From contig PBVT01000123.1 in the NCBI GenBank assembly GCA_002728755.1, forward strand, positions 538-64,537: DNA of 64,000 nt, given 5' to 3'. The stretch is from Myxococcales bacterium (lineage in GTDB: Bacteria; Myxococcota_A; UBA9042; UBA3505). Of this stretch, positions 3,169 to 19,208 are shown one piece after another (position 1 is the stretch's first letter; each line of letters opens with the position of its first letter). A program made the translations under genes and the position numbers. A model generated the notes under the pieces. It was not told the DNA's origin and did not search any database. It was given only the letters and a program-made list of their open reading frames with translations.

Positions 3169-3981
3169 GTGCCACAGATGATCTACCAAAAGACCAAAAA
3201 CGATATCGATCACATCCGAAAGGCGGGGCGAATTCTGGCGCGAGCCTTGAATCGAACCCTGCAGGAAGTGAAGCCCGGCATAACAACACGACAGCTGGAC
3301 TTTATCGCCGAAGAGTGGATTCGCGGTGAAGGGGGCCTCCCCACATTCAAAGGTATCTATGGAGATCCAAGCCGTGGCATTCCACCCTTTCCGGGCACCC
3401 TGTGTATCTCCGTAAACGAAGAGGTTGTCCACGGTATCCCTGGAATTCGAGTTCTCCAGGAAGGTGACATTATCTCTCTGGATTGCGGCGTAACGATCAA
3501 GGCCAATGGACGCCAGTATGTCGCGGACTCCGCGGTTACCGTTGGGGTGGGTACCATCTCCGACGAGGACACATATCTACTCGAGCTCACCGATACGTCC
3601 CTCGCGAAGGGGATCGAACAGACACGTATAGGAAACCGCCTCTACGATATCGGTGCCGCTATCGAAGCCCATATCAAACCATCCGGCTACGGTATTGTTC
3701 GCGAATATTTCGGCCATGGAGTGGGCTATCAACTCCACGAGGATCCGATGGTGCCAAATTTTGGCCGGGCCGGAACCGGTCCACGCCTGAAAAATGGCTG
3801 GGTGCTCGCCCTGGAACCGATGGTGAATCTGGGGGACGATGCCGTCCATACCCTTGACGACGCATGGACTGTCGTCACATCCGATGGGGCCCGGTCGGCA
3901 CATTTTGAGCATACGGTTGCGATCACGGAGGACGGCCCAGAGATCCTCACGCGACGTGATCTCCCCGAGGTACAGGTTTGA
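3169..3981 (+). CDS. map: Methionine aminopeptidase, type I
   Basis: A 270-aa protein with the MetAP-I metal-ligand context (DCG...D...HGVGY.HE...LEPM...FEHTV). Its N-terminus (KTKNDIDHIRKAGRILA) is typical of MetAP. Confidence 0.93.
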   Translation: MPQMIYQKTKNDIDHIRKAGRILARALNRTLQEVKPGITTRQLDFIAEEWIRGEGGLPTFKGIYGDPSRGIPPFPGTLCISVNEEVVHGIPGIRVLQEGDIISLDCGVTIKANGRQYVADSAVTVGVGTISDEDTYLLELTDTSLAKGIEQTRIGNRLYDIGAAIEAHIKPSGYGIVREYFGHGVGYQLHEDPMVPNFGRAGTGPRLKNGWVLALEPMVNLGDDAVHTLDDAWTVVTSDGARSAHFEHTVAITEDGPEILTRRDLPEVQV

Positions 3982-5108
3982 GCCAAGAGACCATGGTGAC
4001 TTCGTCCAAAAGCCAAGACGGTGTACCCAATGGGCCGATAAGCCGACAACAACGCGCACAGAGCCTGGGCGTCTCCCTGGACGCGGTCGAGCTATGTGAC
4101 GAATCCGATCTGATCGATCTACATCTGGACACCTTCATCCCCGTTCGCCTGTATGGCTACGATCCGAACAGTCGCCATCGCAGCCGCTTCCTCGGCGGGC
4201 GGTTTATGGGTCATCTTGATCTACCACGGGCCGTCGACGGCGGCCTCTCTGGCGCCATGTGGTCTATCACCACCAACCCATTTCCAACGGCCGAATCACG
4301 CTGGGCCATCTTCAAGGACAACCTTGATCATTTCCAGCGCTTCGTAGCGAATTCCAATGGGGGCATCACCTTCGTTCGAAACGTCGCCGAATATCGAGCA
4401 GCCCAGAGCAACGGTAGCCACGGATGCTTTCTCTCCATACAGGGGGGCAACTCCCTGGAGGCCGCACCGAATGGTCCCCTGTCCGTCCCCGACGACCTGC
4501 TCCTTCGAGTTACCCTGGTTCACCTGACCCCTTCGGCCTTTGGAGGTACATCCTGTCCCATCGAGAAGGCGCGGCGTTCCCATGGGCTGACTCCGGCAGG
4601 TGCCCGATTTGTGGAGCAACTCAATGAAGGGAAGGTCTTTGTCGATCTGGCCCATATCCATGAAGACGCCTTCTGGGACGCCGTCGACGTACACGACTCT
4701 TCCCAACCTCTTCTGGTAACCCACACCGGCGTGGATGGCGTATCTCCGTCCTGGCGCAACCTAAACGATCGGCAGATCAAGGCCGTCGCAGAGACCAACG
4801 GGACCATCGGTATTATTTTTCACCAGGGCTTTTTAAAACGACCCAAAGGTCCCACCGGCGTGGAGATGGTCGTAGAGCACATCCAACATGTCATCGACGT
4901 GGTTGGCGATGACTTCGTCTCCATCGGAAGCGACTACGACGGTATGATTACCCCGCCGCGAGGCTTACGTAGTGCCGAACAATATCCATGTCTGGTACAA
5001 GCGATGCTGGACCGACACTGGACGCCAGAGCGCATCCAGAAGATCCTCGGGACCAATTTCCTTCGAACCCTTGCGCAACTGCGGCCGACCGACACCTCGA
5101 ACCCCTGA
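3978..5108 (+). CDS. Membrane dipeptidase, peptidase M19 (renal dipeptidase family)
   Basis: Carries DLHLDTF near the N-terminus plus LVHLT, FVDLAHI, THTG and GSDYDG blocks typical of M19 dipeptidases. The ORF track starts it at the TTG at 3978, overlapping the map stop; the ATG at 3993 is an alternative start. Confidence 0.85.
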   Translation: MSQETMVTSSKSQDGVPNGPISRQQRAQSLGVSLDAVELCDESDLIDLHLDTFIPVRLYGYDPNSRHRSRFLGGRFMGHLDLPRAVDGGLSGAMWSITTNPFPTAESRWAIFKDNLDHFQRFVANSNGGITFVRNVAEYRAAQSNGSHGCFLSIQGGNSLEAAPNGPLSVPDDLLLRVTLVHLTPSAFGGTSCPIEKARRSHGLTPAGARFVEQLNEGKVFVDLAHIHEDAFWDAVDVHDSSQPLLVTHTGVDGVSPSWRNLNDRQIKAVAETNGTIGIIFHQGFLKRPKGPTGVEMVVEHIQHVIDVVGDDFVSIGSDYDGMITPPRGLRSAEQYPCLVQAMLDRHWTPERIQKILGTNFLRTLAQLRPTDTSNP

Positions 5109-7900
5109 TGAAGTTCTCTAAGAAAACCATTATCGCAGCGGCTACATTGCTGATCGGTATCGCATTGGTGCTGGTATATCTGCTGGTCTTGTCGATGGCG
5201 CAGTCCCGTGTTCGAGATCGACTGGTTTCTGTAGGATTCAAAAAGTCGATGGACGTTTCCGTCTCGTTAACGTCGGGCGTCACGGTTCGAAATCTGGAAC
5301 GGAGCCACCCTATGAGCGTCGGCGGCTTCGATGTGCAAGTGGATGTGGCGCAGGTAAAAGTCCCCCTCAATCTCTTCAAGGTGGTGCTGGGGAAAAACCC
5401 GGTGAAGGGTGAATTCCGGGTCCACGGAGGTCAGCTTCGAATTGCATCGGCGACCAAAGAAGAGACCTTTGAAGAGGCCCCCGCACAAAGTGGTGGACGT
5501 TTGCGCAGAGCTCTACGGCGGTTCTGTAATAAGACCTGCCGAATCAAGATGAGCGATATGGCGCTGATTTTCGATACGGCCGACGCCAATTGGGGGCGCC
5601 CGAATGCTCTCGGTGGTGTCGCAACAATTGACGCCGATGGTCTCTTTACAGCGGCCCTCTCCGACGCCTCCGGGCTTTCCATTGAGGCGAACGGGAACCT
5701 CTTTCAGCTGGGATCAACCCTCGTCGCACGCGTAGAGCAACCACCACCTCTGGAGATGCGTGGTGAATTCGCGTATCGACTGGAGAATCAACTTGCCGGC
5801 CAACTGGGGCCCAGTCTTGGCAGCGTCGTCACCAACCTCCAAAGTACATCAGAAGGTCCCGAATCGGTCGCAGCTGTCCCGATACAGAGCATCTCGTCCA
5901 AAACCGAGATCGGTTCGGTGGAGATCGACGCCGATCGTCGAATCCACATTCGTAAAGCCTCCTACCACCGCAGCCTGTCCGACTCGATGGAAGTCCGGGT
6001 CTCGGTGAACGATCTGGTTGTCAGCCGTGGTGGCCGCCCCGGGTGTGAAAACCTGCCCCTCTGCATACATCTACTCAATGGTGTCAGTCTCTCCGCTGGA
6101 GATCAGAAGCGAAGCCTGACGGCCAAGGCCGAAGCGGCCAAACCCTGCGGTGATGGTTGCCTTGCGGTCCTGAACGCGCGCCTTGTCTCCGAAGGCCTGG
6201 ACTTCCCCTTCGTCGCCAATATCGAACGGGTACGTACCCTATGGGACCCAGATACTCGGCTATTGGGCGAAATACGTGCCGATAACGGCACCATCGCGGG
6301 CCTCCCCATACCACGGCTCAAGGCCCCTCCTCGGGACCCGACAACGGACGAGCAGAAAAAAGACCAGAAGGAGCAGTTAAAGCGTGAAGATCGGTTCGCT
6401 CGTTACGCCCGTGCCCAGACCCTACGACTGGACAACCGCTACCAGGACTTCTTCGATAAAACATGGGGGCCAGGCCTACTGAAGCTAAGCGACGATGGGT
6501 ACCAGATCCCCGGTTTCCATTTATCCGACATCGAGTTCTCGACGATGCCCGACGCGGAAGTTCAGGCTCGCGGCATCATTCGTTCCTTTGGCTTCCGCCA
6601 ATCCGGCGCGGGTCGACTTACCATCGATGGCCGTATTGATCTCTCCGAGGCGCGAATCCAACAACGTGTACTCGTTCCCGCCAGTGAAGACACAGAAGCC
6701 GAAGTTCGATTCAACACCACCGATATCTCCATGAGCGTCGCGGGGTCTGGCGTCTTGAATTACGATGGAAGCTTCACCTCTTCGTTCAGCGGACGTCTGC
6801 CGAAGATCGAGATCGACCATCCGATGATCGCCCCCAAACCGGTGGAATTCAGTCCCCTTGATTTCGCCGGCACCTTCACGCGGGTAGTCCGGCCTGGGCG
6901 GTCCAGTTGGTTCGCACCCAATCTGGAAGTCAAAGCGAAACGAGGCGGGGTTATGCGTCTCCATTCCGCGTTGGAGATCAATCGCAGCAATCCCAAGAGA
7001 AGTGGCATGAGCCTACGCCTGGAAATTCCGAAGCAGGATTGCTGGGTTCTCTTTAAGAGCATCCCCACCGCGATGATGCCTGGTCTGGAACAGGCCGACT
7101 TCCGTGGCAAGGCCGAACTTACCATCGACTCCAGCATGCGGTTCCACCGAACCTATAATATGGAGCTGGAGGTAGAGGCCGATTTCGACTCCTGCCGAAT
7201 CTTGAGCCTGGGTCGAAAGTTCGACATCAACGCTATGACCTCGAACACGGTTGTATACCGCATCAAAGATCCGACTCTAGACGACCCGGTTCTGGTGGGT
7301 CCGGGTACCCGTGATTGGACGGAATTTCCAGAAATCCCGACACATGTCTGGGGCGCGGCTCTCGCCACAGAAGATCTGGCGTTCTGGAGCCACTACGGCT
7401 TTATGCCCTCGCTGATCAAACGAGGCATTATTCTGAATCTGGACCGTGGACGGTATGTCTACGGCGGAAGCACCATCACCCAGCAGTTGGTGAAGAACCT
7501 CTTTCTTTACCGCCAGAAGACACTCGCCAGAAAATTGGTAGAAGGCATTCTGGTATGGGCGGTCGAACGCCAGGTCCCCAAACGACGGATCCTGGAGCTC
7601 TACCTAAACTGCATCGAATTCGGCCCCGAAATCTATGGCATCAAGAAAGCGGCGGCGGTGTACTTTGGACAGCTTCCGGCCGATCTGAATCCAGTCGAAG
7701 CAACCTATATTATGAACCTGAAGCCGGATCCTCCCTACGGGTATCGAAACTGGCGACGACGTCGTACAACACAGCAGTTCATACGCCGACTGGAACAGGT
7801 GAAGACGCGCCTTTTGGACCGCGAATGGGTGACGCCAGAAGATGCCGAAATTATGGTCCCGGAGATCCTATGGGACCGAGCCGCCCCGGTACGACGTTGA
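5108..7900 (+). CDS. Fusion protein of about 930 aa. It has an N-terminal TM anchor, a ~740-aa beta-rich periplasmic region with AsmA/TamB-like character, and a C-terminal GT51 peptidoglycan transglycosylase domain.
   Basis: The ATG at 5108 overlaps the dipeptidase stop (ctgATGa). The N-terminus MKFSKKTIIAAATLLIGIALVLVYLLVL is a signal anchor. The C-terminus carries the full set of GT51 motifs: ATEDLAFWSHYGF (EDxxFxxHxG), GGSTITQQLVKNLF (GxSTxTQQ), RKLVEGILVWAVE (RKxxE) and KRRILELYLNCIEFGPEIYG. The 4988-5107 upstream part of track ORF 4988..7900 is treated as a chance in-frame extension. Confidence 0.8.
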   Translation: MKFSKKTIIAAATLLIGIALVLVYLLVLSMAQSRVRDRLVSVGFKKSMDVSVSLTSGVTVRNLERSHPMSVGGFDVQVDVAQVKVPLNLFKVVLGKNPVKGEFRVHGGQLRIASATKEETFEEAPAQSGGRLRRALRRFCNKTCRIKMSDMALIFDTADANWGRPNALGGVATIDADGLFTAALSDASGLSIEANGNLFQLGSTLVARVEQPPPLEMRGEFAYRLENQLAGQLGPSLGSVVTNLQSTSEGPESVAAVPIQSISSKTEIGSVEIDADRRIHIRKASYHRSLSDSMEVRVSVNDLVVSRGGRPGCENLPLCIHLLNGVSLSAGDQKRSLTAKAEAAKPCGDGCLAVLNARLVSEGLDFPFVANIERVRTLWDPDTRLLGEIRADNGTIAGLPIPRLKAPPRDPTTDEQKKDQKEQLKREDRFARYARAQTLRLDNRYQDFFDKTWGPGLLKLSDDGYQIPGFHLSDIEFSTMPDAEVQARGIIRSFGFRQSGAGRLTIDGRIDLSEARIQQRVLVPASEDTEAEVRFNTTDISMSVAGSGVLNYDGSFTSSFSGRLPKIEIDHPMIAPKPVEFSPLDFAGTFTRVVRPGRSSWFAPNLEVKAKRGGVMRLHSALEINRSNPKRSGMSLRLEIPKQDCWVLFKSIPTAMMPGLEQADFRGKAELTIDSSMRFHRTYNMELEVEADFDSCRILSLGRKFDINAMTSNTVVYRIKDPTLDDPVLVGPGTRDWTEFPEIPTHVWGAALATEDLAFWSHYGFMPSLIKRGIILNLDRGRYVYGGSTITQQLVKNLFLYRQKTLARKLVEGILVWAVERQVPKRRILELYLNCIEFGPEIYGIKKAAAVYFGQLPADLNPVEATYIMNLKPDPPYGYRNWRRRRTTQQFIRRLEQVKTRLLDREWVTPEDAEIMVPEILWDRAAPVRR

Positions 7901-7927
7901 AGTGTTCGCGATTCCGTGGGAAGAAGA

Positions 7928-9055
7928 ATGTCTTGGACAGGACCCGAGACAATGACCACTCCAATCCGAATCTTAGTTCCAGGCGCCGGAGGACCCGGCA
8001 CGATCAATCTGTGTCGTTCTCTTCGACGAGCACCGGAACCCGTCCATCTCATCGGCACCGACTGTGATCGCGCCTTTGCGACTCTGGCACAGACCGATGA
8101 AATTCATCTGGTCCCTCCGGCCCGCGACGAGAACGCCTATCTGGAACGTATACAAGAGCTGGTACATAGCCGAAACGTGGACGTGATCCTCCCCAATAAC
8201 AGTATTGAGGTGCGCGCATTAGCCAAGAACCGCGACGATATCTCGGCGGCTATGCTCGTTCCACCGGTCGCGTTCCTGGATCTCGCTAATAGCAAGTGGG
8301 AGTCCTATCAGCGCTGGCGAGACCAGAATCTACCGGTCCCCCAGACGTGGTTATTGGAGCAACCGGACGATGTTCACCAGGCTTTCGAAGAGCTCAAGAC
8401 TCGTCCCGTATGGGTTCGAGGTGCCGGTATACCCGGCCGAGGTATTGGTGTCGCATCGCTTCCGTGTAAGAACTCGGAAGAAGCCCGTGTCTGGGTGGAC
8501 TACTGGAGTGGCTGGGGTGGGATGATCGCATCTGAGTTTCTGCCGGGAGCCAACCTGACCTGGATCGGACTCTTCCAAAACGGCGAACTCATCACCGGCC
8601 AGGGCCGAGAACGGGATCGCTATGTAATTCCTCATGTGTCTCCATCGGGGATCACCGGCGCTCCCGCCATCAGTCATACGGTACATCGCGAGGATATCGC
8701 TGAGCTCGGACTCAAAGCGGCGCGATGTCTCGATCCAAACGTACATGGGGTCGTCTTTGTTGACTTCAAATGCGACGAAAAGGATCAGCCGTACATCACA
8801 GAGCTGAACGCCTGTCGCTTTGGAACCACCCATTTCTTCTACACAGCGGCCGGCCTGAATCTTCCATGGCTTTCCGTCCTGCTCGCTCTGAACAGACCTC
8901 TTCCCGAGACGCCAAAAACGAATCCGCTACCCGACAATCTCTACTGGATACGAACTCTTGACGCCGGTCCTGTAATGATATCGGGTACCGACCTTGACGC
9001 TGGAAACCTCGATGCGGGAATACGCTTTAATGTAAATGGGACTCCGCTCCCCTAA
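7928..9055 (+). CDS. ATP-grasp domain protein, a ligase of unknown substrate
   Basis: N-terminus IRILVPGAGGPGTINLCRSL. The central region (WVRGAGIPGRGIGVAS..., ASEFLPG, ITELNACRFG) fits an ATP-grasp fold. The start is chosen from the GTG at 7916, the ATG at 7928 and the ATG at 7952. Confidence 0.7.
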   Translation: MSWTGPETMTTPIRILVPGAGGPGTINLCRSLRRAPEPVHLIGTDCDRAFATLAQTDEIHLVPPARDENAYLERIQELVHSRNVDVILPNNSIEVRALAKNRDDISAAMLVPPVAFLDLANSKWESYQRWRDQNLPVPQTWLLEQPDDVHQAFEELKTRPVWVRGAGIPGRGIGVASLPCKNSEEARVWVDYWSGWGGMIASEFLPGANLTWIGLFQNGELITGQGRERDRYVIPHVSPSGITGAPAISHTVHREDIAELGLKAARCLDPNVHGVVFVDFKCDEKDQPYITELNACRFGTTHFFYTAAGLNLPWLSVLLALNRPLPETPKTNPLPDNLYWIRTLDAGPVMISGTDLDAGNLDAGIRFNVNGTPLP

Positions 9056-9154: not shown

Positions 9155-9238
9155 GCGAGAATGGTGGAATTGGTAGACACGCAAGGCTAAGGACCTTGTG
9201 GCCGCAAGGCTGTGAGGGTTCGAGTCCCTCTTCTCGCA
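9155..9238 (+). tRNA. tRNA-Leu (type II, long variable arm) whose anticodon loop CUAAGGA reads as AAG (A34)
   Basis: Cloverleaf drawn by hand. Acceptor stem GCGAGAA pairs with TTCTCGC and the discriminator is A. D arm GTG-GAATTGGTAGA-CAC, anticodon stem CAAGG/CCTTG, variable arm of about 15 nt, T arm GAGGG-TTCGAGT-CCCTC. It aligns position-for-position with E. coli tRNA-Leu isoacceptors. No CCA is encoded. Confidence 0.85.
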
Positions 9239-9242
9239 CTGC

Positions 9243-9286
9243 AATACCGCGAGCAGTTCTTCTGCTCGCGGTATTGTTCGTTTTGG
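9243..9286 (+). terminator. Rho-independent terminator immediately after the tRNA-Leu
   Basis: A perfect 15-bp inverted repeat, CAATACCGCGAGCAG-ttctt-CTGCTCGCGGTATTG, followed by TTCGTTTTGG. Confidence 0.6.
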
Positions 9287-12307: not shown

Positions 12308-13927
12308 ATGGCGAAGAACGAACAGGGACGAGCATTGGGCTCCGTAGCTGCCGGTCACCCGGACACAGCAGCCGCAGCACATGCGATCCTCCTGGAGGGA
12401 GGTAACGCGATCGATGCCGCTATCGCTGCGATCCTGGTCAGCACGATCGCTGAGGGCCCATTAACGGGTCTGGGCGGTGGAGGATATGCAACCGTTCGCG
12501 ATACAAATGGCGAGGTCTATTCCGTCGATTTCTTCGTCGACACGCCGGGTCTTGGCCTCGAGCTGACCACAGAGCGCCGTACGCGGGGATTTCATGGGGT
12601 CGACATCGACTTTGGCAGTACGAACCAGGTCTTTCACGTAGGAGGTGGATCCATCGCGGTCCCCGGCCTGCCTCTGGGCGTGGAACACCTATCCAAGCGC
12701 TTTGGAACCCTACCCATGTCTCGTCTGGTCGAACCGGCCATACAGGCCGCGCGAGATGGCATCGTGGTCACAGACGCGCTGGCACAGATGGTAGACATTC
12801 TCCAGGATATCGCTTGTGGCTCCGACATGGGACACGCCTTCTATTGTCCCAACGGTGCTCTACCCAGGTCGGGCGACCGTCTACTATTGCCACAAGCGGC
12901 TACCTACCTCGAGGACTTCGCGCAACGTGGCGCAGAGCCCACCTACCGAGGTGATATCGCCCAGAAAATGATCGACGCTGTCGATGCAGCCGACGGGTAT
13001 CTCACCTCGAAAGATCTCAGCTCGTATCGAGTCAAAGAAACACCTTCCGAACAAAGTAGCCTGGGGAATATTCGCCTACATATGCCCCCCGCACCAGGGC
13101 TGGGTGGCCCCCTCATCGCCTTCGCTTTGGATATTCTCGGGGCCGATACAGAACGCCTTCACGACTTCGGTGAAGCGGCTATTATTCGCCTTGCAGCAGC
13201 CCAGGCAGCCACCGACTCCTTTCGGAACGAAATCGTCGATCCACTTCTTTTGACGGGCTACGGCGGCGTGCAGCACCGAAACCAAGACATCCAGAACAGA
13301 TACCGTCAACGCTATGAGGCGTGGCTCGAGAAGCCCCATGGATTGGCCACACCGGTCCCCTCCTCCGCTGTGGGGAGCACAACCCACATCTCCGTCGTCG
13401 CAGGCGACGGCACCGTCTGCTCGGTAACGACCAGTAATGGAGAAGGTTCAACCGTGTGGATCGAGGAGCTCGGATTCCACATCAATAATATGCTTGGAGA
13501 AGAAGATCTGCATCCTGGCTCCTTCCATCGATATGACGCAGGTATACGCCTGCCCTCTATGATGGCCCCCACGATCGCCGAAACACCGGATGGACGAATT
13601 GTTGCCCTCGGTAGTGGTGGAAGTAACCGGCTACGCTCAGCCATTCTACAAGTGGTATTGCATCATCTGGCCCGCAATGAATCCATGGCCAACGCGACGC
13701 AACATCCGCGAGTACACCTGGAAAACGGTATCCTTGATATCGAGCCAGGTATCGACACGGCTATCGTGAACAGCTTGGCGCAGAAGGGCATGCATATCAA
13801 CCGATGGAACCAGACCAATCTTTATTTTGGTGGTGTCCATGCGGCCGGTACAGATGCGAACGGACAGTTCAGTGCGGCCGGAGACCCACGCCGTGGCGGA
13901 GTGGCTATGATCGCCACATCCAGCTGA
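12308..13927 (+). CDS. ggt: Gamma-glutamyltranspeptidase
   Basis: TGLGGGGYATV near the N-terminus and the autoprocessing nucleophile context GSTTHISVVAGDG...TTSNG are characteristic of GGT. Confidence 0.92.
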   Translation: MAKNEQGRALGSVAAGHPDTAAAAHAILLEGGNAIDAAIAAILVSTIAEGPLTGLGGGGYATVRDTNGEVYSVDFFVDTPGLGLELTTERRTRGFHGVDIDFGSTNQVFHVGGGSIAVPGLPLGVEHLSKRFGTLPMSRLVEPAIQAARDGIVVTDALAQMVDILQDIACGSDMGHAFYCPNGALPRSGDRLLLPQAATYLEDFAQRGAEPTYRGDIAQKMIDAVDAADGYLTSKDLSSYRVKETPSEQSSLGNIRLHMPPAPGLGGPLIAFALDILGADTERLHDFGEAAIIRLAAAQAATDSFRNEIVDPLLLTGYGGVQHRNQDIQNRYRQRYEAWLEKPHGLATPVPSSAVGSTTHISVVAGDGTVCSVTTSNGEGSTVWIEELGFHINNMLGEEDLHPGSFHRYDAGIRLPSMMAPTIAETPDGRIVALGSGGSNRLRSAILQVVLHHLARNESMANATQHPRVHLENGILDIEPGIDTAIVNSLAQKGMHINRWNQTNLYFGGVHAAGTDANGQFSAAGDPRRGGVAMIATSS

Positions 13928-15261: not shown

Positions 15262-15870
15262 CTATCCTTCGGTCTCGTCCTCGGTTTCGTCCGATTCTGT
15301 TCCTTCGTCGGCTGGCGTTGGATCCCCATGTTCGGGCGAGTCGGTACCGGTATCAGCAGGCGTTGGATCACCATGGCCAGCAGGATTGGAGCTTCCGTCG
15401 GCCGGGGTAGGATCACCGTGGCCAGCCGGCATCTCATCGGCCGGTGTTGGATCGCCATGCCCTGGCGCATCATCACCAGGTAGCGGAACCGCCGGAGTGG
15501 GATCGCCGTGATCTAACGGGTTCTCGTCCGCCGGTGTGGGATCGCCATGACCGTCGGCTCCGTTGGCATAGTAATCCGCACAGGCATCGATGATCTCCTG
15601 TGGGATCTCCACACCATATTGGAAGCTATTCTGTAGCCAGAAAAGACAGAGATCCTGTTGTGACCAGGAGGTCTCAACCCCGTTGGAGAGCCGGACCATA
15701 ATCATCACATCGTTTGTCTCGGTCGATAGGGAATAGTCGGTGATAAAGCCCACCGATTCATTCGGATTGACCTGTGCGCCATCCTCAAAGAGGCCAGAAT
15801 CAGATACCGGCTCACAGGCCTGGAGAACCAGGGCCAACAGCAGCAGAATCGTATGGAACCGAGCTATCAT
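15262..15870 (-). CDS. Lipoprotein with six C-terminal HGDPTPAD repeats, a possible metal-binding protein
   Basis: Lipobox [19 protein letters not shown]. Six copies of (G/D/E)HGDPTPA(D/V) between residues 108 and 188, followed by an acidic tail. Its ATG overlaps the stop of the upstream sigma-54 activator (ATGA). Confidence 0.7.
   Translation of the reverse strand: MIARFHTILLLLALVLQACEPVSDSGLFEDGAQVNPNESVGFITDYSLSTETNDVMIMVRLSNGVETSWSQQDLCLFWLQNSFQYGVEIPQEIIDACADYYANGADGHGDPTPADENPLDHGDPTPAVPLPGDDAPGHGDPTPADEMPAGHGDPTPADGSSNPAGHGDPTPADTGTDSPEHGDPTPADEGTESDETEDETEG
15307..15549 (-). repeat. In-frame tandem repeat encoding six HGDPTPAD units
   Basis: Repeated ggatc(a/g)cc(a/g)tg(g/a)cc-containing units are visible in the DNA. 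The repeat lies within the lipoprotein gene. Confidence 0.8.
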
Positions 15871-18800
15871 TTCAACCCGTACTCCTTCACTTTACGAGAC
15901 AGTATCGTACGTGTCATTCCCAAAAGACGGGCCGCCGCCGCAATATTCCCATCCGATTGCTTCATCGCCTTGGCAATATATTCCAACTCTATCTGCCGTT
16001 GGAGGCGCTTGAGCGAGAAGCCGGGTGTCAGCTGCCAATCATCCAACGATACGGGGCGGTCCTCGGTAGAGTTCAAGCCCTTCGCTTCACCGGGGCCAAA
16101 TAGGCGCACCAGATCGGCCGTAATACGACCGTTCTCGGAGAGGTGGATCAGTCGCTCCAGAACATTTCGTAGTTCCCGCGTATTGCCCGGCCAATCGTAG
16201 GTCTCCAGAACATCAAACGCGTCCGAATCGATTTCTACATCCTCTGCAAAGGGAAGCTCTGCAATAATCGAATGGGCGAGCGCCCGAAGATCGGAGATTC
16301 GATTGCGTAGAGACGGTAAACCCAGGGTCATGCCCGAAATACGATAATAGAGGTCGAGGCGGAATCGGCCCTGATCAACCAGCTCCTTCAGATTTCGGTT
16401 CGTGGCAAGCACAACGCGCGCATCGGAACGAACAATCTCCGTGCCACCGACACGATGGAAGGTCCCGTCTTGAAGCACGCGGAGCAAGGCCACCTGCGCA
16501 CCCATAGAAAGATCACCAATCTCGTCGAGGAATAATGTACCACCATTGGCCAGCTCGAATTTTCCTGGCTTCTTGCGGTAGGCACCCGTAAACGCACCTC
16601 GTTCATGCCCGAAGAGCTCGGACAACAATAAGGTTTCGGCGAGTGCGGCCACATTCACACGTACCATCGGACCATGGCTTCGGTTCGACCAGGAATGAAT
16701 AACCTCGGCCACCAGCTCTTTCCCGGTACCACTTTCCCCCTCAAGAAGAACCGGTGCATCGGACGATGCATACCGCTCGGCCAACGCGAGGGTGCGAAGT
16801 AAGGCAGGGTGTTGCCCTGCTATTCGGCCAGGGGTTCGGGACGGTTTTGTTACGATATCAGGCTGAGTCGGCTGTTCCATTCGTTTCTCCTGCCTCTGTG
16901 CAAACCCTTCAAGCTTCTTGAACCACGGTCGTCCAATGAAGCCATCACGGTCCGAATCCAATACCGACTCCCCTAACTCAATAATGATCGTTCGCGCCTC
17001 ACGTAAGACACGATTGGCCTGCCCACTCTCCCCCTGGGAACGGTACGCAGCAGACAAGATGATACGGGCTTCCCAACGTAGCGCCGCGTCACCGGTCTGA
17101 TCCGACTGCTCAATCAGAGGTGCAAGAATAGCAATCGCACGCTCTGACTCTGTCACCGCTAGACTCCAGGCCCGTGTCCAATCCCAGGCCTGGCGTGTAG
17201 AGAGTCCGATCTCCGCAGGCGCTTGGCCCGGATCGTTCAGCGTTCCACCAGCCAGTAGCGTGTTTTGCATTCGTAGAATTTGAATCCGGGCATCTCGCTC
17301 CGCTTCCGGCTCCACACATAGAGTCAGCGCACGATCCAGATGTCCGTCGGCTGCGACGTACTGTTCATCCATCATGAACGCACGGGCTCGCCGAATAATC
17401 GCATCGATTTCAAGTTTCGTATGCCCCGCCTGTTTCGCAGATTCTTCCGCCAGAGCACAGAGTCGCCGAGCCGAGGCTGCACGGCCAATGGTCGTCTGTA
17501 CGTCGGCCAGAGCGAGAAGATTACGAATCCGCCCATGGAAAGACGGCAGAACATCCAGTTGCTGCACGCTATCTTTGAAGGCTTCCTCTGCGACTCCATA
17601 GTGGCCCAGATACTCACGGGCGATAGCCATATTCGCCAAAGTGATCGCGCGTTCCAATCCCAGCCCGGCCTGCTCAAAAAGCAGCGAGACGGCCTCAAAT
17701 TCCGAGGCTGCATCCTCGTAGCGCCCCTCGGAAAGCAAAGCAATCGCCATATTTCCGCGAGTACGTGCCGACCCCACCTGAAGGTGCTCGCGTCCAAGAG
17801 ATTGCAGATCCTCTCGTGCCGATTCGATCCGGCCCAGAAGAAGATTACAGCGAGAGCGTACCAGGCACGCGGTCGATTCCGAGTCGCCCACCTCCGCTAA
17901 TAACTCCAAAGCCTTCTCGGCTTCTCCGTCCGCATAGAGGATATGTGCCTTCAGACAGGTTCCGGCCTCGCCATCAACCGGGTCTTGAGCGAGATGCCGA
18001 AGCAGATCATCGGCCTGGTTCTCAATTCCTTCTTGCACCAGTGCAGCGAAGCTCTGTCGTACGGTATCGGAGTCGATCGCCGGGACAGGTGTTAGAACTT
18101 CAATGGCTTCGTTATTTCGCCCCTGATCAAGCAGAGTACGCGCCAATTCCCATACGACCTCGTCTGCTCCAGAGCCGATAGAGGCTAGTTGAATCGCAGC
18201 CTCATGACGCCATTGTGTTCGTAATTGGCGAACCGTGTCGGGAACAAGGCCCCATAAGGATCCGGAGGCTACGAATCGAAGAGGCGCGAGTCGTGCCAGA
18301 TCACATGCGCTGTCTGGATCGCGGGTGAATCGATAATGGGTGGCCAGAAGCTCGACAAACGCCGTTTGGCGGTCCGTCGCTCCACCCCCAGCGGGAAACG
18401 GAAGCCTGGTTTGCACATAATCAGAATCCAGCTCCACAACGTCTGCGTCGGCGAGTTCGTTCAATGCCCGTATTACATTGGTCTGCGACAACATCGTCAG
18501 CCCCGGAAGCGCGTCCCGGTGCACGAGTCGAGCCAATGTATCGAGCGCGAACCAGCATTGCTGTGCATCGTCGGACAGGTCCGGTACGATCAACCGTGAA
18601 TACGCCATCGGATTACGCCGGACAGGATCCGGAACCGCCATCGCATGCGGGGCTTCAATTCGTGGGACATCGGTCTCCTGACCATCTGGAATAAGGAGCA
18701 GGAGTCTGCCCTTGGGCTTGCGATGAGAAAACCGTGAGAGCTGATGGTTTTGCCAGGGGTTCGCGAGGGATTCTGCCAATTCCACAGCGTCCGAATAGCG

Positions 18801-19208
18801 GCGCAGGTCGAGCACCAACAACATCGGGGTCTGTTCCATTACGGCATACAACATACGAGACAGGAGATGGAGAACACCGGCCCGTCTTCGTGGTGCGACT
18901 CGCCCCTGGGAAGGATAGCCATCCAGGCTACGCTTCAACGACGTTCCCAGCTCGCGGGCTTCCGTCGAGATGTGTGCATGACGGCGGTCATCGAGGACCA
19001 CATCGACCAGGTCCTTAAGAAGGCGTGGCATGCTCTCACCAAAGGTGAGGCGCACAACTGGGCGTGTCTGGTCTCGAGCCAACACATCGACCATTCCATA
19101 TCCCCCCGAAGGAGACATACAGGCGACAGCATGCAAACCAGCCTGCATCCACTCATTGAGTGTAAGTCGGCTAGAGACGTTCGCGTTTTGTGGCTGGGGC
19201 CGATTCAT
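15867..19208 (-). CDS. Sigma-54-dependent transcriptional activator, 1113 aa, with a ~780-aa N-terminal sensory region containing TPR-like helical repeats
   Basis: The C-terminal third carries the sigma-54 AAA+ interaction domain ([38 protein letters not shown]) and a Fis-type HTH ([23 protein letters not shown]). The N-terminal region is helical and TPR-like (e.g. [19 protein letters not shown]) with no receiver domain. The first ATG was used as the start; an internal start is possible. Confidence 0.88.

Follow-up and report, generated by a model that had tools for sequence, protein, structure and literature searches.

A Myxococcota protein family that joins an AsmA-like N-terminal region to a C-terminal GT51 glycosyltransferase domain

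The stretch analysed here, hereafter the window, comprises 64,000 nucleotides of a metagenome-assembled genome (MAG) of a Myxococcales bacterium (contig PBVT01000123.1, positions 538 to 64,537) and contains a gene for a protein of 930 amino acids (aa) in which a membrane anchor and a long beta-rich region precede a complete glycosyltransferase domain of family GT51. This gene is conserved in a family of relatives, and it is highly probable that GT51 is genuinely fused here to an AsmA-like head and arm and that the GT51 domain, as predicted, is active. Judged from its sequence, the protein is a member of a Myxococcota-specific family of monofunctional glycan polymerases. A further and more tentative proposal, slightly short of an even chance when taken as a whole, is that the AsmA-like part delivers the lipid-linked wall precursor to the catalytic domain through a groove.

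The fusion gene and its GT51 domain

The C-terminal domain matches the Transgly family PF00912 over residues 734–885 (6e-42, 143.4 bits, gathering score 27), and the solved structure closest to it is that of the Aquifex aeolicus penicillin-binding protein (PBP) 1a glycosyltransferase domain (2oqo, 1e-36). All five GT51 motifs are found and align residue by residue to 2oqo, namely motif 1 ATED..F..H.G (E755/D756), motif 2 GGSTITQQ, motif 3 RK..E812 (RKLVE), motif 4 K..ILE.YLN (KRRILELYLN), and motif 5 RR. The catalytic Glu/Asp residues are invariant in 32 relatives, in which every catalytic or substrate-binding motif is invariant or nearly so, and the completeness of the domain claimed in an earlier note, made on this DNA from its letters alone, has thus held on proper alignment, with no degenerate motif. 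Moreover, an AlphaFold2 model was built from a 32-sequence family alignment (predicted template modelling score, pTM, 0.57), and its GT51 part superimposes on 3nb6, 2oqo, and 3d3h in Foldseek searches with E values of 7e-11 to 1e-9, TMt of 0.83–0.86, and a root-mean-square deviation of 2.4–3.2 Å. The domain thus has the head-and-jaw fold, with a lysozyme-like head, that is typical of GT51. The full model gave significant PDB matches in this part only.

As the earlier note had also stated, no transpeptidase is attached to this domain, since PF00905 is not matched and the protein ends about 45 residues past the Pfam GT51 match, and neither OB/ODD (PF17092) nor UB2H domains are found in the 930-aa protein. 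The MtgA equivalog model TIGR02070 scores 124 bits against a cutoff of 182.65, and the NCBIfam models for PBP1a, PBP1b, and PBP1c score far under their cutoffs. Therefore, the enzyme is a monofunctional GT51 but no orthologue of MtgA, nor did it arise as a class A PBP cut short, and its sequence scores place it in PF00912 and outside both of these groups. It resembles MtgA in carrying a GT51 domain without a transpeptidase, with five motifs and both catalytic glutamates, and its fold matches the Staphylococcus aureus MtgA structures 3vmq, 3hzs, and 6ftb (E 1e-8 to 1e-7, TMt ~0.7). However, MtgA has only about 240 aa, with a transmembrane helix immediately before the catalytic domain, whereas here some 700 residues lie between the two and a beta module takes the place of the helix; in addition, the GT51 domains of the family form a group of their own. 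Among class A PBPs are the closest relatives of the catalytic domain (Aquifex PBP1a, 2oqo/3nb6, 1e-36, 40–42% identity), but in those enzymes the GT51 domain is N-terminal, after the transmembrane helix, and here it is C-terminal, so that the order is reversed. A known PBP accessory domain (UB2H, ODD, or BiPBP_C) in the N-terminal region was considered and rejected, as this region has no Pfam match at E ≤ 10.

The family was delimited by an exhaustive HMMER search of 1.84 billion cluster representatives with a profile of two N-terminal regions (E ≤ 1e-3), which found at least 38 family proteins, mostly of 800–1100 aa; the family counts and alignments in this work rest on 32 long relatives of these 38 matches. 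The Transgly domain is C-terminal in 32 of 32, so that the fusion pointed out in the earlier note is indeed conserved in relatives. Exactly one hydrophobic segment, N-terminal and preceded by basic residues, is present in 29 of the 32, and none of the 32 has a transmembrane segment ahead of GT51 or any hydrophobic window past residue 80. All named members come from Myxococcota, Myxococcales, or ‘Deltaproteobacteria’ MAGs, and databases label them as ‘transglycosylase domain-containing protein’ or ‘hypothetical’. Queried with the entire chain and with residues 1–730, word-indexed collections of 5.8 billion proteins yielded only the cluster of the protein itself and one relative of 84% identity, which was also the only sequence turned up by a scan of genome contigs; a further indexed search with an alignment of the module next to GT51 gave no match. 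A scan of metagenome contigs with a 4-sequence alignment found only two loci, both already in the set. The next-closest relative (P0092, locus L006) is 34% identical. Within the family, the GT51 domains score at least 149 bits and share at least 43% identity with one another, as against at most 127 bits with the 86 best class A PBPs. Since they are closer to each other than to any of these class A PBPs, the fusion arose once and was inherited thereafter.

The protein is on record as MBR59436.1, a ‘hypothetical protein’ of 970 aa from a marine ‘Myxococcales bacterium’ MAG. The start annotated in that record is an ATG at 4988, inside the upstream gene for a dipeptidase of family M19, and makes the product 40 codons longer (4988–5107). 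The ATG at 5108 is indicated as the true start by its conservation, by the anchor at the N-terminus, and by the length of the 84% relative, which also has 930 aa. This relative, encoded in a second MAG within a fully syntenic locus, aligns with the protein without any gap across the N-terminal 730 residues. In the codon comparison of the two, the synonymous rate (dS) is near saturation and the ratio of nonsynonymous to synonymous rates (dN/dS) is 0.065 overall, ranging over seven segments of the 930-codon alignment from 0.03 (GT51) to 0.28 (residues 219–262). As the ratio is low in every segment, purifying selection has acted along the whole reading frame, including the part without a recognised domain. 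The identical 930-aa architecture recurs in independent assemblies from ENA, JGI, and NCBI, and the fusion is one real gene and not a frameshift artefact. That an AsmA-like gene and mtgA were joined only by a frameshift or a chimeric contig, a question that arises solely because the source is a MAG and for which nothing speaks, has a negligible chance in view of these independent assemblies, an alignment without insertions or deletions and with dN/dS below 0.3 across the junction, and a junction module common to 32 diverged proteins from many samples.

Anchor, beta-rich arm, and the module preceding GT51

The transmembrane anchor noticed earlier was recovered as a single segment close to the N-terminus (Table 1), which coincides with a helix at residues 5–41 of the AlphaFold2 model, and no second transmembrane-like window occurs in the 930-aa protein. 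Hence the predicted topology, derived from the basic residues and the hydropathy of the chain, has the N-terminus in the cytoplasm and the remainder of the protein in the periplasm. Between the helix and GT51 lies a beta-rich stretch of about 690 residues, and residues 45–730 are modelled as 50% strand with 29 strands of at least five residues. The beta-rich character described in the earlier note is therefore reproduced by the model, although this region has no significant fold match in the PDB. Its confidence is given here as the predicted local distance difference test (pLDDT). After the AsmA-like head, the middle beta module is strongly constrained (dN/dS 0.04), and no relatives of it were detected outside the close clade. 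Most of residues 452–529 fall below a pLDDT of 50. Residues 401–540 include a helix rich in K, E, and D and a very low-confidence part with pLDDT of 29–50; they are 85% identical to the close relative, with a dN/dS of 0.05. Constrained and yet unplaced by AlphaFold, this region may possibly be a hinge or a partner-binding region. Across the family, conservation peaks at both ends of the protein, and residues 219–540 vary in sequence and length, with a top-residue frequency of 0.19–0.23 and an occupancy of 0.5–0.7 in the middle of the arm.

The beta module adjoining GT51 carries the signature P.QDC....SIP..M.P.L.G....G ... C...(T/S)LG, in which the cysteines C645 and C696 form a pair that is invariant in the 32-member family, and nearly all of the distant matches of the exhaustive search align to residues ~600–730. 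It has no Pfam or PDB match. Together with GT51 (residues 541–930), this module is modelled as one contiguous unit with pLDDT above 90, and it stands where canonical GT51 domains have their transmembrane helix. In characterised GT51 enzymes, the catalytic domain is kept at the membrane by a juxtamembrane helix directly ahead of it. Four cysteine pairs with short spacing, C140/C144, C313/C319, C347/C351, and C645/C696, are all kept in the 84% relative, and this pattern is consistent with periplasmic disulfides.

Table 1. Features of the fusion gene and of the genes around it, in positions of the window; residue numbers refer to the 930-aa protein.
Feature	Position	Strand	Basis or remark
map, type I methionine aminopeptidase	3178–3981	+	ATG at 3178; TIGR00500 7e-84 (above cutoff), PF00557
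M19 dipeptidase gene	3978–5108	+	PF01244, 1.2e-64
Fusion gene, 930 aa	5108–7900	+	transmembrane anchor, AsmA-like head, beta-rich arm, GT51
Transmembrane anchor, residues 7–30 (predicted)	5126–5197	+	Kyte-Doolittle 19-residue window, 2.84; preceded by MKFSKK (three Lys)
AsmA-like head, residues ~26–219 (predicted)	5183–5764	+	first beta module after the anchor; pLDDT ~80–90
Middle beta module, residues 263–400 (predicted)	5894–6307	+	eight strands of 10–14 residues; pLDDT ~75–90
Charged helical stretch and low-confidence segment, residues 401–540	6308–6727	+	AlphaFold2 model, dN/dS
Beta module before GT51, residues 541–730 (predicted)	6728–7297	+	most conserved non-catalytic part of the family
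GT51 glycosyltransferase domain, residues 731–930	7298–7897	+	PF00912, 2oqo alignment, Foldseek
ATP-grasp enzyme gene	7928–9055	+	PylC-like_N 5e-07, ATP-grasp_3 1e-04, PRK12767 2.5e-23
tRNA-Leu(AAG)	9155–9239	+	ARAGORN and Rfam
Intrinsic terminator, 16-bp stem	9241–9277	+	terminator scan; 3’ of tRNA-Leu

AsmA resemblance and the proposed supply of lipid II

AsmA-like proteins are built from an N-terminal transmembrane helix, a chorein-N region of about 120 aa, and a long beta-rich periplasmic region (PMC8593681). The likeness of the N-terminal region to AsmA and TamB, suggested in the earlier note, stood for the head, where it emerges through the relatives, and did not stand as a direct match of the query, in which a Pfam search detects Transgly and neither AsmA nor DUF748. 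DUF748 is matched by 13 of the 32 relatives (best 3.6e-11), YhdP by two, and YdbH-like by one, and two relatives have weak AsmA matches (E ~0.02); one member, P0137, carries a precomputed DUF748+Transgly annotation. These matches to models of the AsmA clan run from N-terminus to N-terminus, e.g., residues 4–317 to model positions 15–335. Furthermore, a hidden Markov model (HMM) of the 32 N-terminal regions finds Escherichia coli AsmA at 4.6e-11 (HMM 3–219 to AsmA 2–210), TamB at 1.2e-6, and YhdP at 5.6e-3, while E was ≥ 0.03 throughout for 14 E. coli control proteins of other kinds and for 1303 decoy open reading frames (ORFs) from a six-frame translation of all DNA retrieved. The clade of the query is linked to the remaining family by hhalign with a probability of 99.9 over the whole region and, for the N-terminal 260 residues, of 96.4 (E 1e-9, residues 26–219); residues 260–420 gave no signal against the rest of the family. 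Thus, homology of the anchor-proximal head to the AsmA/chorein-N region is supported via the family profile. The protein shares with clan CL0401 the N-terminal anchor, this homology to the AsmA N-terminus, and a long beta-rich region, but it ends in an enzyme where the clan has the end that binds an outer-membrane partner.

Both substrates of GT51 enzymes are anchored by undecaprenyl pyrophosphate. Since these substrates are lipid-anchored, the only transmembrane helix lies some 700 residues away from the catalytic domain, and the head descends from lipid-transfer proteins, the arm is proposed to take over substrate presentation. As read here, the protein is a single-pass inner-membrane protein with a cytoplasmic N-terminus, whose periplasmic part consists of an AsmA/chorein-N-like head, a beta-rich arm of about 500 residues, and GT51; where the arm ends, the conserved beta module with its predicted disulfide stands in for the canonical transmembrane helix next to the catalytic domain. 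The AsmA-like arm would offer a hydrophobic surface or groove that draws the undecaprenyl tails, both that of lipid II and that of the elongating strand, from the outer leaflet of the inner membrane, shields them, and presents them to GT51 at its far end. In this manner, glycan strands would be polymerised off the membrane surface and close to the sacculus, and cross-linking would fall to separate transpeptidases. The delivery of lipid II by such a groove is a serious possibility, although one that falls somewhat below even odds. A conceptual precedent, and no more than that, is the Lpt bridge, where a periplasmic beta-sheet groove (LptC–LptA–LptD beta-jellyroll) carries the glycolipid lipopolysaccharide from the inner membrane; however, this system is ATP-driven, consists of several subunits, and contains no polymerase, and it has neither a sequence nor a significant structural relationship with the protein.

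Several observations weigh against this proposal. Residues 1–730 match no Pfam family and no PDB sequence, even at E ≤ 10, and the resemblance to AsmA is therefore not directly detectable in the query sequence. The AsmA, DUF748, YhdP, YdbH-like, TamB, and Chorein_N models do not match the query directly, and its clade alone (seven sequences) yields nothing significant against E. coli AsmA, YhdP, YdbH, and TamB with either an HMM or hhalign. The clan matches in the relatives are all below Pfam gathering scores; the similarity is transitive, sub-threshold, and confined to the first 200–370 residues, and residues 260–540 stay unassigned. Formal membership of the query sequence in the AsmA clan is not established, and an AsmA-like lipid groove along 700 residues is unproven. 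In addition, the low-confidence segments 229–262 and 452–529, together with the pTM of 0.57, could represent hinges through which GT51 bends back to the inner membrane. No conserved gene for an outer-membrane partner was seen in 10 loci. Lastly, we know of no AsmA-like protein that carries polyprenyl-linked substrates, and none was found in the literature searched. With regard to structure, the whole-family profile finds only GT51 chains in the PDB, and a model of the N-terminal region alone gives weak, non-significant Foldseek matches to extended beta-sheet proteins, among them LptD, ApoB100, OrfX/P47, and OspA (E ≥ 7e-3, TM score ~0.1–0.16), which speak neither for nor against an AsmA fold.

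Among the alternatives, the one that survives best is that the arm handles no lipid II and acts as a ruler, scaffold, or sensor reaching the sacculus or the outer membrane, i.e., a built-in analogue of the UB2H and ODD domains and the Lpo activators of class A PBPs, while GT51 and its module swing back to the inner membrane via flexible segments. This explanation is considered rather unlikely. It draws on the same two possibly flexible segments and the modest pTM, on a GT51 jaw region which, in the 2oqo alignment, is as in membrane-associated enzymes, and on the poor conservation of the middle of the arm across the family, as expected for a spacer. Moreover, class A PBPs of Gram-negative bacteria need envelope-spanning activators (PMC8536351, PMC10746261). 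However, a mere spacer accords poorly with the strong constraint on residues 401–540 between close relatives, and it leaves unexplained both the AsmA/chorein-N character of the anchor-proximal part and the loss of the transmembrane helix next to GT51 in all 32 members.

An alternative that appears improbable is that the protein is a phospholipid carrier of the AsmA type, in which GT51 mainly docks on nascent glycan, lipid II, or sites of wall synthesis, so that the lipid supply of the outer membrane would be coupled to wall growth and catalysis would be secondary. The AsmA-like head does sit at the membrane anchor, and the C-terminal end of AsmA-like proteins is their partner-binding end (PMC8593681); genes for a CDP-OH_P_transf protein and an acyltransferase lie near the fusion gene in locus L007, as does an LPG_synthase_TM gene in L004, L015, and L018. 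These lipid genes, however, are neither adjacent nor consistent across clades, and a mere binding module would not be expected to keep its motifs invariant or almost invariant throughout 32 diverged members. The arm, with its ~690 residues, is also at the short end of periplasm-spanning proteins, which have more than 700 beta-rich aa (PMC8593681).

An extension of the groove proposal, which is itself a long shot, is a full envelope bridge in which the groove conveys lipid II across the periplasm to a GT51 domain docked at or beyond the sacculus, possibly at the inner leaflet of the outer membrane. Neither tamA nor ynbE was found alongside the fusion gene in the loci examined. If such a bridge were true, strands would be laid down from outside the wall, or a mechanical link would tie wall synthesis to the lipid flow of the outer membrane. 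No earlier bridge-type lipid-transfer protein would then have included an enzyme of its own or have been dedicated to a polyprenyl-linked wall precursor.

Gene neighbourhood and meaning of the architecture

The fusion gene stands in a chain of genes whose tight spacing, as read in the earlier note, was confirmed by the ORFs and the junction sequences. The M19 gene begins with a TTG at 3978, giving a 4-nt overlap (TTGA) with the end of map, whose stop codon is at 3979–3981; an alternative ATG for the M19 gene lies at 3993, and the M19 stop codon (5106–5108) shares one nucleotide with the fusion-gene ATG (TGATG). The fusion gene stops at 7898–7900, and the ATG of the ATP-grasp gene follows 27 nt further. 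The terminator scan found no terminator-like site between map and the ATP-grasp gene, and the first strong one, after the tRNA-Leu gene, is the probable end of the transcription unit. The M19 protein has the PDB relatives 3ly0, 3fdg, and renal dipeptidase 1itq. The ATP-grasp protein has only weak PDB matches (3df7 and 2pn1), its model scores, including that of the ‘carbamoyl phosphate synthase-like’ PRK12767, are all under equivalog cutoffs and leave its specificity undefined, and no Ddl/Mur-type model was matched in Pfam, NCBIfam, and PDB searches. Neither protein has a signal peptide; the M19 enzyme is therefore placed in the cytoplasm, where the ATP-grasp enzyme is also predicted to reside. 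The wider surroundings are of a housekeeping kind, including FtsK, UvrD, Mfd, RseP, and CTP synthase.

From this chain, the earlier note had suggested that the dipeptidase and the ATP-grasp ligase remodel peptide stems together with the fusion protein during glycan polymerisation. The neighbourhood of map, M19, and ATP-grasp genes is intact in the closest relatives (loci L001–L003, 84% identity), and L006 likewise has map, the fusion and ATP-grasp genes, tRNA-Leu, and the aminotransferase gene downstream. The start/stop overlaps, the 27-nt gap, and the lack of a terminator before 9241 are in line with the suggestion, as is the ATP-grasp neighbour kept in L001 and L006. Some bacterial M19 enzymes also cleave L-Xaa-D-Xaa dipeptides. 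Nevertheless, L006 lacks the M19 gene within an otherwise preserved synteny, neither gene stands beside the fusion gene in the seven distant loci L004, L005, L007/L008, L015, L016, L017, and L018, both enzymes lack signal peptides while GT51 is periplasmic, the ATP-grasp protein fits no Ddl/Mur-type model, and the chain opens with housekeeping map and closes with a tRNA gene. Peptide-stem remodelling is thus very unlikely and this part of the earlier note was not upheld. Given the absence of both genes in distant loci, the lack of signal peptides, and the housekeeping setting, the neighbourhood is lineage-specific synteny and not evidence for such remodelling; its genes would be co-transcribed through compact gene packing and would not be functional partners. 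A gene for gamma-glutamyltranspeptidase (12308–13927, + strand) lies in the same co-directional cluster as the M19 gene, which also holds an EamA transporter, a hisC-like aminotransferase, and an unannotated 168-aa protein. Dipeptidases of family M19 and gamma-glutamyltranspeptidases catalyse the two steps by which glutathione and gamma-glutamyl peptides are broken down, and this pathway fits the two genes at least as well as stem remodelling does.

Other features of these loci were also recorded. The ATP-grasp protein is 62% identical to its counterpart in L006 (9055–10086), where the fusion proteins share 34%, so that the former is far better conserved. The tRNA-Leu(AAG) gene, with A at position 34, lies 100 nt past the ATP-grasp gene with the strong terminator next to it, and occupies an equivalent place in L001 (14048–14132) and L006 (10174–10258); to our knowledge, A34 is uncommon in bacterial tRNAs apart from tRNA-Arg(ACG), and the base might be deaminated to inosine. 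A lipoprotein gene directly after the tRNA gene was rejected, given that its apparent lipobox falls within the hairpin of the terminator and lacks a plausible start codon upstream. An ORF of 1113 aa (15867–19208, − strand) has a counterpart of 1111 aa in L001, in which TPR repeats are fused to a sigma-54 activator AAA+ domain and HTH_8, and which is predicted from these domains to be an unusually long enhancer-binding protein.

A different neighbourhood is conserved in a second subclade, formed by L004 (P0099), L015 (P0137), L016 (P0144), and L018 (P0126). The order there is LPG_synthase_TM, Metallophos, S21, a Rce1-like gene, a divergent gene, and the fusion gene, the divergent gene directly upstream encoding a protein of 477–761 aa without a Pfam match. 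Downstream, a protein of 494–627 aa of unknown kind is encoded in all four loci, SBP_bac_5 follows the fusion gene directly in three of the four, and a GluQRS-like gene is found further on in three of the four. The product of the divergent gene, SBP_bac_5, and the protein of 494–627 aa are candidates for interaction with the fusion protein.

Full-text literature searches brought up no account of GT51 fused to an AsmA-like region, and a review of wall synthesis in Myxococcus xanthus mentions only the Rod system and class A PBPs. What is new is a conserved, lineage-restricted architecture that joins two well-studied modules, and the combination of an AsmA-like head with GT51 hints at a lipid-transfer module that handles a lipid-linked wall precursor. 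GT51 polymerases are thought to act only at the surface of the inner membrane, held by their own transmembrane helix, and AsmA-like proteins are currently seen as passive phospholipid bridges without catalytic parts. Both views are challenged by a conserved family in which an AsmA-derived arm carries, at its end, an intact GT51 domain devoid of this helix. Such an arrangement suggests that polyprenyl-linked glycolipids are within the reach of bridge-type lipid-transfer modules, and that the polymerisation of glycan can take place at some distance from the membrane. If the arm were only a spacer, the protein would still represent a new domain architecture for an enzyme that is an antibiotic target, albeit of narrower interest. 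The architecture would surprise envelope specialists, the groove that feeds lipid II to the enzyme being what we infer from it. The family offers a natural single-polypeptide system for asking what AsmA-type grooves carry and how GT51 enzymes get their substrates. Furthermore, it bears on the organisation of wall synthesis in the Myxococcota, bacteria in which sporulation and germination involve rebuilding of the wall and the division of the outer membrane is a separate event.

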